Source: a virus (Duplodnaviria; Heunggongvirae; Uroviricota; Caudoviricetes). From it: a stretch of 26,877 nucleotides of DNA. A program made the position numbers. This document shows, one piece after another, positions 1 through 3,000 of the stretch (the first letter of the stretch is position 1; each line of letters begins with the position of its first letter). The stretch is from IMG/VR virus record IMGVR_UViG_2718218104_000011; one strand, given 5' to 3'.

Positions 1-3000
1 CTAAATTTTACTTAATACCACACTAATAAGATCTTGCTTTCCGCCATGATAAGATTGCATTATTTGACTTTCACTCCATGAACGGTCGGAAACATTATAA
101 GATGATATATCTATTGGATTAAACTCATTCTTCGCGCGGTCATATAAGACATTTGTCTCTGTTGTATCGACAAAAAGAATTCCTTTTTGCTCCAGTCTAT
201 CAAACATATCGTAAATAGCATGCTCAGCCTGTGCTGGCAAGGACGAAATATTTAAAAGCGATTCTCCATTTATTTTATCCATTCTAATACCAATAATATC
301 ACCATTATTGCCATATATTTTTTCTGCACTCCCGGCACCATAATATTGGTTGAAGCAACGAACTTCGCTTGTCACCTCTTCATTGCTTTGAGATGTAGTA
401 AACATCTTCAGGACTTTTGTTGCATCCTCAGCATCTTCATATACTACAGCGTTCCCCCCTTTGCCAATAACATTACCAGGTACTGACAACCTGTTATAGT
501 CCACACTCGGTAACTCTGGCGGTGCATAATCAACAGGAGGTAAATCAGGTCTGTTCGAATGAACAATGCCTCTTTCCATAGCAGCGCTCACTGGTGATGC
601 ATTCAGCATGACCTCAATTTTCCTGCTAATCTCCCCCTTAGGCCATCCCAGCCTGTGCAACAGATTAGTAAAACAACCACTATGACTTTCTCTTGTAACG
701 CAAAACTTATTATCGGTGGCAACAACACGATATGTTCTGTTGCCAACCTTTACTTGCGCCCCATTATCAGAATGAACGGCAGCATCCCTTACAGAGGATA
801 AAACACGATTATCAGGCGAAGTCAGGTTTCTGGTTAAAGAATTCCATGAACATCCCAAATTTACAGAATATGGCGATAACATACATTTCAACCTTCAAAA
901 TAAACCCATCTAAATTTCCTTAACAAACATCCCCCTAACATGGCAACAAAAATTAGAAATGAACTCTTGCTTTTTGTATCTGGCAACTAATTCATCCTTC
1001 CAGCATCCCATCAAACGAACGTTTACGAACTATAACGCAGGTATTACCGGTCACTCGATATCTGGAGATACAGACGTATCAACATGATTGAGCGGCATAC
1101 GATACTGCTTCCATGCCGCCAGTAACGATGTCTGCTCATCCGTCGCAATATCTAAATCTGCAGCATCCTGAAGTGGTGCGATATACTCACTGATTACAAG
1201 TACCAGACCGATAGATTAAAAAAAACACAATAACACGCTGCATTTAAAACAAAAAATTTTAAATATGATTTAATACAAGCTTTAAGCCTTTAATTATCAG
1301 TTTTATTTATTTTCCAGCAATTGATTAATCAATTGTTTATATACAAATTATTCCTTTTCTTTCTCTCACGCAAAATTCACAAAATATTGTTGCTGCAATG
1401 GACCTGTACAATAGTGAATCACGGTACTTTTCTGTGCACAACGTACTGCAGTTTCTTTACGATTTATAGCTGTACTGTTGAATTATGTACAATTTGAATC
1501 CATGCATGACGTGTGATGCCTATTGTGCATTTTTCCGAGCCTCTTTTTACTGGGCCGAAGCCGATGATGCTGATAGTCTCGTTCCGGCCATGTTCACTTA
1601 CTACAGTAAAATTAGGGGAATTGCCTTTACATACAATGTTGCACGATTACCCATCATCAACTCCGTTAAAATGTATGAATAGTAACCTTATGTCACTGCA
1701 AAGACGAATCATTGCTGATTGTGTTTGTCCACATCCCCAAATGTAAAAATATAAGGGGCGCCATGATACAGTTGGATCTGATTTGCATCCTGTAAATTAT
1801 CGTTGATAGCCAATCCAGGAAAATCATGTTGCTGGATAAATCCGTATCCTATGTTAGACACAGCGGAATACTCTGTGAAATCAGGACTCGCCTCATATCG
1901 GTCACTGATCGTACCCAGCCTTTCGAAGAAAGCCCTCTCATTCTCTTCATGCCTCATGGCAGCCTGTCGAAGGGCATTCAGGTTACGTAGCCTAAGATGA
2001 GCTTCACGTTCTGGCTCTGCATATCCTTTGAAGTCGGGAACACTCCATCCCAGTTCTTGAGCGACACGACGTGCGAGAATCTCGGTGGGTCCTAACTCTA
2101 TATTACTATCTCCAGATGGATCGCTAGATCCAGTAACATGATGAATAATCTCGTGAATCAGTCCTTCCTGCCACGATGGCATCTCATAAGAGTCAGTATC
2201 TGGCGCAACACTAAAACTGACATAAGGCTCTTCGTTATCGTTTTCTCCTGCTTCGCAAATGGGGAAAATTGGCTCTTGCCCGACATCATATTCATATAAT
2301 TCGTTACAGGTTAGTGATTGAATATCATCAATTTTGACAGAAGATTCTTCGTTAAGCTCGTATTCGTTTCTGTATTTAATGCAACCAATGTGTACCTTCT
2401 CATTATGAATGCCATAGCTTACGGCATCACGAAATGTCTGTGATCGGCTCAAAGCATCAAGTACAGTGTTGCCGATCATATCGACTGTATGCTGATCGAT
2501 AAGCCTGCTACGGCTGTCATGGACGGCGCGTATTACACTTTCGTATACGTTGCTTAAATCTGCTGCGGAAAGTGGTATTCGCTTACCTATATCCAAAACG
2601 TAATCCGCATAGGCATTTTCAGCACGATTAGGAGCAATGGGAGCAGAGTATCCTGCCGGGGCGGAAAAGTTGAAGTTGGACTGTAATGAGGGAATTTTCA
2701 TGTTTATATCTAATACCCTGCAAATCATTTATTACAACAAAATAAACTATATCAAATTCATTTACCATGAACTGCATGTATACTGACTTGTGTTCATGAT
2801 TATATTAGGGTGGTTAAACTCAATAAAGTCACAAAAATGATTATAATTATGTAATGGTGTAAAATTAAAATATTTCTTAACTCCTTTCCCCAAACCATCA
2901 TAATATGGATGAGCATCTACTTTACTATGCATAAAAGAAAGTCCCTCAAGTAGAGCAGGATGATTACTACGGTTAACAATTATTGCACTATTTTCAATAT

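Follow-up and report, generated by a model that had tools for sequence, protein, structure and literature searches.

Introduction

In prophages of Escherichia coli O157:H7, a fragment of a tail fibre assembly gene (tfa) lies between nleH1 and nleC, two effector genes of the type III secretion system (T3SS), which raises the question of how a piece of a phage tail gene came to rest there and whether it serves any purpose. The example analysed here is a stretch of 26,877 nucleotides from a virus record of IMG/VR (IMGVR_UViG_2718218104_000011, Caudoviricetes), referred to as the window, which represents the right arm of a defective, Sp3/CP-933K-type lambdoid prophage at the lambda site beside ybhB-bioA. 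A preliminary description, made from the sequence without database searches, had read the fragment as what is left of the phage's own tfa after stepwise insertion of effector genes. Our analysis points to a different history, which we consider probable: the segment is a non-functional seam that joins two units, each made of a fibre-operon end followed by effectors, and the truncated tfa ('tfa) was inherited together with nleH in one of them.

The seam lies in an exchangeable effector locus (EEL). These loci of lambda-like prophages go back to Tobe et al. 2006 (as cited in PMC8112680), and effector loci are found at the very end of such prophages (PMC8112680). The pieces of the seam can be named, their boundaries can be placed, they occur in other prophages, and the junction at which tfa is broken is common to the window and two of these.

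A dead 3' end of tfa

1033-1206, minus strand: tfa pseudogene, 5'-truncated, equivalent to lambda Tfa residues 136-193, without start codon.

The minus-strand translation from 1221 to 1051 matches the Pfam family Caudo_TAP (PF02413) with E=5.9e-16 and 59 bits against a cutoff of 22.1, the match spanning profile positions 80-125 of 131 only, and it aligns to lambda Tfa residues 136-186 with 73% identity (E=4e-24). An in-frame TGA interrupts the stub at 1051-1053; read through by tblastn, lambda Tfa residues 136-193 equal window 1206 to 1033 (E=6e-21). At that codon, related stubs have TGG (Trp) and they terminate with ...PDIEWP(I/V)IPAL*, the original stop of the window stub being at 1030-1032. 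The DNA of the stub is about 75% identical to the annotated lambda tfa (orf-194), and its identity to the tfa genes annotated in lambda and in numerous E. coli prophages is 72-78%. The preliminary description had named the fragment as the C-terminus of a lambdoid Tfa and had proposed database alignment to Tfa proteins as the test of that claim; the fragment does align, and the claim stands.

The remainder of the gene is missing. In the frame of the stub there is no open reading frame (ORF) of at least 30 aa; the frame opens after a stop codon and offers no ATG, GTG or TTG. No trace of the N-terminal coding sequence for the missing 135 residues is found anywhere in the 26.9-kb window. In lambda, tfa is distal to J-lom-stf and on the same strand; compared with that gene, to which its residues are 67-73% identical, the window stub comprises the last 30% only, lacks a start codon, has a premature TGA and adjoins no fibre gene. 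It is separated from the side tail fibre genes stfN and stfC by nleB2, nleC and a relic of a ykgJ-family gene, i.e., by about 2.7 kb without insertion sequence (IS). Bases 1051-1206 carry the label "tail fiber assembly protein, incomplete, missing N-terminus" in the annotation by the Prokaryotic Genome Annotation Pipeline (PGAP), which marks them as a tfa pseudogene in hundreds of O157 genomes. Taken together, the segment reads as a real but dead 3' remnant of a tail fibre assembly gene.

Two stacked late-operon ends

The window phage's own fibre operon ends at stfC, a second, small fibre gene with a Phage_fiber_C domain, and it ends there with its own strong terminator. This terminator is part of a post-fibre element, termed D1, of which the window holds two copies.

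3837-3913, minus strand: D1 copy 1, directly after stfC; intact intrinsic-terminator hairpin CCGGAGTCCGGCUCCGG, then U5.
906-982, minus strand: D1 copy 2, upstream of nleH1; decayed late-operon terminator and core TTTTTGTTG.CATG..GATGTTTGTTA.

The two copies form a 77-nt direct repeat, about 70% identical, upstream of nleB2 and nleH1, respectively; the core follows the hairpin and is invariant in 8 aligned loci. Folding of 3870-3915, after stfC, yields -21.4 kcal/mol (z -4.35), as for an intrinsic terminator, with the hairpin at about 3880-3905 before nleB2. Folding of 940-985, after the stub, yields -6.5 kcal/mol (z -0.85), and no intrinsic terminator is recognised there. D1 follows stfC in all five aligned sequences, which come from five different prophages, each time upstream of the first effector gene; the O26, O111, O145, PE164 and 2B8 loci all have it in this position. 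None of the eight related stfN-stfC prophages has an intact Caudo_TAP gene after stfC. Since a second D1 copy lies downstream of the stub, the locus contains two stacked late-operon ends, with effector genes after each of them.

The preliminary description had placed the effector cassette in the tail-fibre locus. This is right insofar as the effectors are distal to J-lom-stf, in an att-proximal EEL; however, the fibre genes end with their own terminator before nleB2.

On these grounds, the sequence divides into two units. The first would comprise stfN-stfC, the intact D1 terminator, nleB2, nleC, a block termed Y and, facing the other way, a 5' relic of ykgJ. The second would comprise the 58-codon 3' tfa stub, the decayed D1 and nleH1, and would continue outside the window through an IS256 remnant and nleD to the prophage end (attR). 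The join between the two units appears to be an AT-rich spacer of 160 bp, termed X.

The stub junction in related prophages

Positions 880-1760 of the window are found at 99.9-100% identity in 337 complete genomes. Compared with phage 2B8 and strain EC12, identity is 96.5% in nleH1, 96.7% in the D1 region, 97.1% in the stub and 71% in spacer X. High identity runs about 40 bp beyond the 5' end of the stub before it drops to the 71% of X, while the upstream neighbour of the same stub is espM2 in 2B8/EC12 and nleC in the window. The shared 1206/1207 junction with its flank of about 40 bp indicates that the junction is common by descent despite the differing upstream gene, and the truncation of tfa is, thus, older than the present prophage arrangement. 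The 2B8 and EC12 copies of the stub hold one more internal stop.

In PE164 and O145 RM9872, a stub is followed by a divergent nleH, 85% identical, and then by nleF. Between the window and the PE164 locus, identity is 75% in the stub, 85% in nleH and 85.5% in D1; the stub is, hence, less conserved than D1, which would fit neutral decay of the stub together with constraint on D1. In the same two strains (locus 7676-8120), nleC is cut at the equivalent of window position 2404 and joined to the stub at the equivalent of 1172; this deletion removes the 3' end of nleC, Y, the ykgJ relic and X, and nleH is frameshifted there.

Stubs with other 5' breakpoints also exist. One begins at lambda Tfa residue 108 and lies before espM2 (2B8, EC12), another begins at residue 144 and adjoins DinI-int in the O111 dusA prophage, and a third begins at residue 168 and precedes an nleG-family gene in O111 strain 11128. 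Whatever the 5' breakpoint, every stub seen retains the extreme 3' end of tfa. In O111 strain 11128, nleH stands directly after stfC-D1 with no stub, which makes the stub dispensable for nleH.

The O111:H8 dusA prophage (locus 5844-6230) contains a back-to-back tfa/ykgJ composite without spacer X, located between espM2 and DinI-int. O157 genomes carry a second match to this block, which may lie in an espM2-bearing prophage. With this second composite, the pair of relics recurs in different effector loci.

A mosaic between the stub and nleC

The 502 bp between the stub and nleC had been described as some 500 bp of AT-rich, non-coding sequence. Only 1201-1400 is strongly AT-rich (25% GC), while 1401-1700 has 42.5% GC, and the gap holds a coding relic on the plus strand. 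It is composed of four pieces:

1207-1366, no strand assigned: spacer X, about 25% GC; first ~40 bp co-inherited with the stub.
1367-1416, no strand assigned: block common to O111/Sp17-type espM2-ykgJ' loci; as far as 1405 also in 2B8/EC12; unlike the K-12 intergenic region.
1417-1598, plus strand: ykgJ-family relic; 68 bp of upstream DNA and the first 38 codons (1485-1598), 3'-truncated.
1599-1708, no strand assigned: block Y, sequence 3' of nleC, inherited along with that gene and the ykgJ relic.

The ykgJ relic is 85-88% identical in DNA to chromosomal ykgJ (85% to that of K-12) and 74% identical to residues 1-38 of an intact phage YkgJ (tblastn, E=3e-16). Its CxxCxxCC motif is broken (CMTCDAYC), and its 65-aa ORF has no Pfam match to PF03692, which the intact phage YkgJ matches at 2.8e-11. 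It, too, is a pseudogene in the PGAP annotation ("YkgJ family cysteine cluster protein"). It reads as a pseudogene relic that falls outside the YkgJ family proper.

How the two relics are arranged is of importance for the origin of the seam. In the lambdoid prophage of strain LR-21-1 at the Rac site, J-lom-stf-tfa is followed by a complete, convergent ykgJ and then by the prophage end (attR). The window relics match this arm (tfa 3' end 74%, ykgJ 5' end 86% identical) in permuted order, with the 3' end of tfa first and the 5' end of ykgJ after it. Such an order is impossible from a single phage arm and implies that two arms have been joined. The LR-21-1 arm has no effectors and keeps the two genes complete and convergent, while the window has only relics of them.

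On the nleC side, 1463-1759 is 81.5% identical to the nleC locus of O26 RM8426, the two sharing the 3' breakpoint of ykgJ and the sequence after it; in O26, nleC-Y-ykgJ' is inherited as a unit of its own. Within the relic, the upstream side is of O111/Sp17 type at 46 of 54 informative sites and the downstream side is of O26 type. This switch would agree with an exchange inside the relic, but a recombination breakpoint there was not accepted, given that O111 homology ends at 1573 and the test is not clean.

Spacer X is the piece with the narrowest distribution. Among 5,426 E. coli genomes, it occurs apart from the O157-type locus (340 genomes, including a few non-O157 strains) in EC12-type loci only, and in the phage collection in 2B8 only; in 2B8/EC12, it sits between the espM2 stop and the same stub. 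[quoted passage not shown] A 60-bp stretch at 1197-1256 matches (80%, E=1e-4) a site beside an ompW-family fragment at a prophage end adjoining trpA in several uropathogenic E. coli (UPEC) strains; this prophage end, in which the matched stretch is position 1501-1560 of locus L009, also holds an intact ykgJ-family gene. The match was set aside as too weak and too AT-rich to interpret.

Proposed history of the seam

The arrangement described above could have arisen from an ancestor in which an intact tfa, part of a lambda-like stf-tfa module convergent with ykgJ and beside the att site, was directly followed by nleH1 as the first cargo gene. Later recombination would have deleted stf together with 135 codons at the start of tfa, and brought in other effector-bearing DNA upstream. 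Possible routes are the replacement of a fibre module, unequal exchange between co-resident or tandem prophages, and the collapse of a prophage-in-prophage. The nleB2-nleC-Y-ykgJ' unit would have joined still later, possibly via exchange inside the ykgJ relic, and both the stub and the ykgJ relic would be decaying passengers.

Several points weigh against this history or limit it. Among the loci compared, no intermediate was found in which an intact tfa is directly followed by D1-nleH, the ancestral state being one that we infer. The data fit fibre-module replacement, unequal exchange and tandem or nested collapse alike. Comparison with the 5,426 E. coli genomes, the phage collection and the K-12 intergenic region did not trace the source of spacer X, and the view of the ykgJ relic as a recombinant is based on only three loci, with O111 homology ending at 1573. 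Moreover, the 97% identity of the stub to that of 2B8 says nothing on constraint at so short a distance, and a role of D1 in the regulation of nleH1 is putative.

Alternative explanations

The position of the stub is what first suggests that the window phage once had an intact stf-tfa and lost it to effector cassettes inserted stepwise, since the stub is distal to J-lom-stf and on the same strand, as tfa is in lambda. The stub of the O111 dusA prophage, at the far end of the effector block by DinI-int, looks likewise as if the whole block had been dropped in between fibre genes and the 3' end of tfa, and if incoming DNA had brought a new fibre module, the stub could be the recipient's own tfa. 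An insertion that splits tfa should, however, leave the N-terminal part upstream, and its absence from the window argues against this history, as do the identical junction next to espM2 in 2B8/EC12, the terminator and D1 that close stfC before nleB2 with D1 repeated after the stub, and the lack of an intact tfa with stfN-stfC-type fibres in all eight related loci. We, therefore, regard in-place destruction, as proposed in the preliminary description, as unlikely. The ykgJ relic invites another explanation, namely that an inner prophage had integrated here, of which a later deletion from the left end to mid-tfa spared 'tfa-nleH1-nleD as a scar. Sequence derived from ykgJ/ecpE in nleC-carrying prophages has been described as a secondary attachment site, attB-in-PP_2, whose 96 bp share about 81% identity with the DNA between ykgJ and ecpE (Nakamura et al. 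2021, PMC8112680); it lies beside effector loci, and prophage-in-prophage integration has been proposed as a route of effector accumulation (PMC8112680). The nleC-carrying prophages of that study resemble the window in having a 5' fragment of ykgJ and upstream DNA beside nleC, and the O26 homologue of our segment repeats the reported 309 bp at 84% to K-12 ykgJ/ecpE and continues into the DinI-int of another prophage. Homology to K-12 ends at about position 1475 of the K-12 GM4792 locus, near where the edge of the 96-bp att would lie in K-12 coordinates, the published sequence being a figure. An att junction should keep the K-12-like intergenic segment; in the window, the homology begins just 68 bp upstream of the ykgJ start (window 1417), and unrelated sequence stands where the intergenic part with the 96-bp att would be expected, 1207-1420 being no better than shuffled. 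X also matches no int-proximal phage arm in the 5,426 genomes. A scar of site-specific integration at the ykgJ relic is, thus, possible and unsupported by the sequences at hand, and the nested-prophage history as a whole appears improbable.

A further explanation concerns the persistence of the stub and not its origin: the stub, X or both could have been kept as the nleH1 promoter, as a region of H-NS silencing or as an IS009-like small RNA. It is in line with this that all stubs keep the 3' end of tfa, most of them being followed by an effector gene about 160 bp on (DinI-int in O111 dusA), and that a tract of 25% GC is typical of H-NS-binding DNA. In addition, the Rfam family IS009 (RF02111) maps to a K-12 tfa relic by ykgJ at 202 bits, and the window stub matches it at E=3e-17. 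That match, at window 1070-1246, reaches 76.4 bits against a gathering score of 117, which leaves the stub outside the family, and it reflects common coding ancestry, because IS009 is itself a tfa relic convergent with ykgJ in K-12. Across the divergent nleH loci, the stub is conserved less (75%) than D1 (85.5%) and nleH (85%); O111 has nleH with stfC-D1 and no stub; and X is missing from the O111 composite and only 71% conserved in 2B8/EC12. A consensus scan, crude as it is, found no minus-strand promoter in 883-1708. Across 850-4066, the promoter/terminator scan found no more sites than in shuffled sequence and missed the stfC hairpin that folding confirmed. Functional retention is considered very unlikely; nothing indicates any function of the stub or of X.

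The small-RNA reading was rejected, as an Rfam scan of 800-1800 returned only the sub-threshold IS009 match. In K-12 GM4792, IS009 covers 1916-2115 of the locus, i.e., the ykgJ-yagU spacer, where the 3' relic of tfa is convergent with an intact ykgJ. Both this relic and the window stub derive from the 3' end of tfa and lie beside ykgJ sequence; the window stub stands back-to-back with a truncated ykgJ instead. The spacing of the tfa relic and ykgJ in K-12 is the same as in an intact lambdoid prophage, so that the core ykgJ locus itself may be the fossil of a phage right arm.

A better candidate for a regulatory role than the stub is the conserved D1 core, which lies upstream of nleH1, nleB2, nleC and nleG genes and is plausible as a regulatory element. 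A conserved "NRIR" motif has been noted upstream of nleB2 and other nle genes (review PMC7142665), and D1 may include it.

Setting of the locus

On the minus strand, the order of genes is lom, stfN, stfC (split by IS629), nleB2, nleC, the stub segment and nleH1. With lom-stfN-stfC-nleB2-nleC-...-nleH1-nleD-ybhB/bioA, the locus conforms to the definition of an EEL given in PMC8112680. The IS-bearing form of the locus is found in strain 9234, which matches over 3700-9200. The neighbouring features are as follows:

1-882, minus strand: nleH1, T3SS effector kinase NleH1-1 (PGAP on identical DNA in O157 genomes; ORF).
1709-2728, minus strand: nleC, T3SS effector zinc metalloprotease (PGAP; ORF).
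2762-3742, minus strand: nleB2, T3SS effector arginine glycosyltransferase (PGAP; ORF).
4013-5322, plus strand: IS629 inside stfC; collinearity with EDL933 stops at 4012, within stfC; one of three identical IS copies.
5503-6762, minus strand: stfN, side tail fibre (Pfam phage_tail_N, Collagen repeats, Phage_fiber_C; PGAP).
6816-7391, minus strand: lom (Ail/Lom family), truncated at its 5' end by the second IS629 (ORF, PGAP).

The stf and lom genes thus lie a few kb from the stub, as the preliminary description had it. The nleC start chosen by PGAP, ATG at 2728, gives 339 aa; an in-frame ATG at 2701 gives a product of 330 aa beginning MKIPSLQ..., the length of the published NleC. From the lom stop to the stfN stop, the window is 63 nt shorter than EDL933 (window 5503-6762 versus 15312-16628 of the EDL933 locus L004), probably owing to variation in the number of collagen-like GXY repeats of the side tail fibre.

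Three copies of IS629/IS1203, 100% identical to each other, are present at 4013-5322 (plus), 7407-8716 (plus) and 20163-21472 (minus). The first breaks stfC, and the second truncates lom and abuts the gene of the terminase large subunit (8948-11050), which indicates that J and most tail and head genes have been deleted. The two direct copies flank stfC'-stfN-lom'.

Relation to known loci and significance

Both relics are already RefSeq pseudogenes of O157:H7 between nleH1-1 and nleC (ECpv15279_RS04245/RS04240 and P7249_RS19195/RS19200), identical in sequence and coordinates; the preliminary description restates the tfa pseudogene and omits the ykgJ part. EELs resemble the window in that T3SS effectors are clustered at the att-proximal end past the tail-fibre genes, in a mosaic and IS-rich setting. 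As such clustering past lambdoid fibre genes is established, the feature in itself is an ordinary one. Its anatomy stub by stub, with D1 duplicated and tfa stubs nested, is not stated for EELs in the literature available to us, a body that excludes Tobe et al. 2006.

A wider and rather unlikely extension would see 3' stubs of tfa, D1 and ykgJ relics as portable "joints" by which units of fibre ends and effectors are stacked, in a loosely integron-like manner, and would take the core ykgJ locus for a fossil phage right arm. If that locus were a fossil phage arm, the proposed chromosome-to-phage origin of the ykgJ-derived secondary att site would be reversed.

What the analysis adds is a corrected reading of the seam, which would join two stacked late-operon ends and include an inherited 'tfa-nleH unit, as opposed to a disruption of tfa in place; furthermore, it draws attention to a conserved element that precedes nleH1, nleB2 and further effector genes in first position. 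This reading of the seam fits the published picture, in which the effector repertoires of enterohaemorrhagic E. coli (EHEC) grow by recombination among co-resident prophages.

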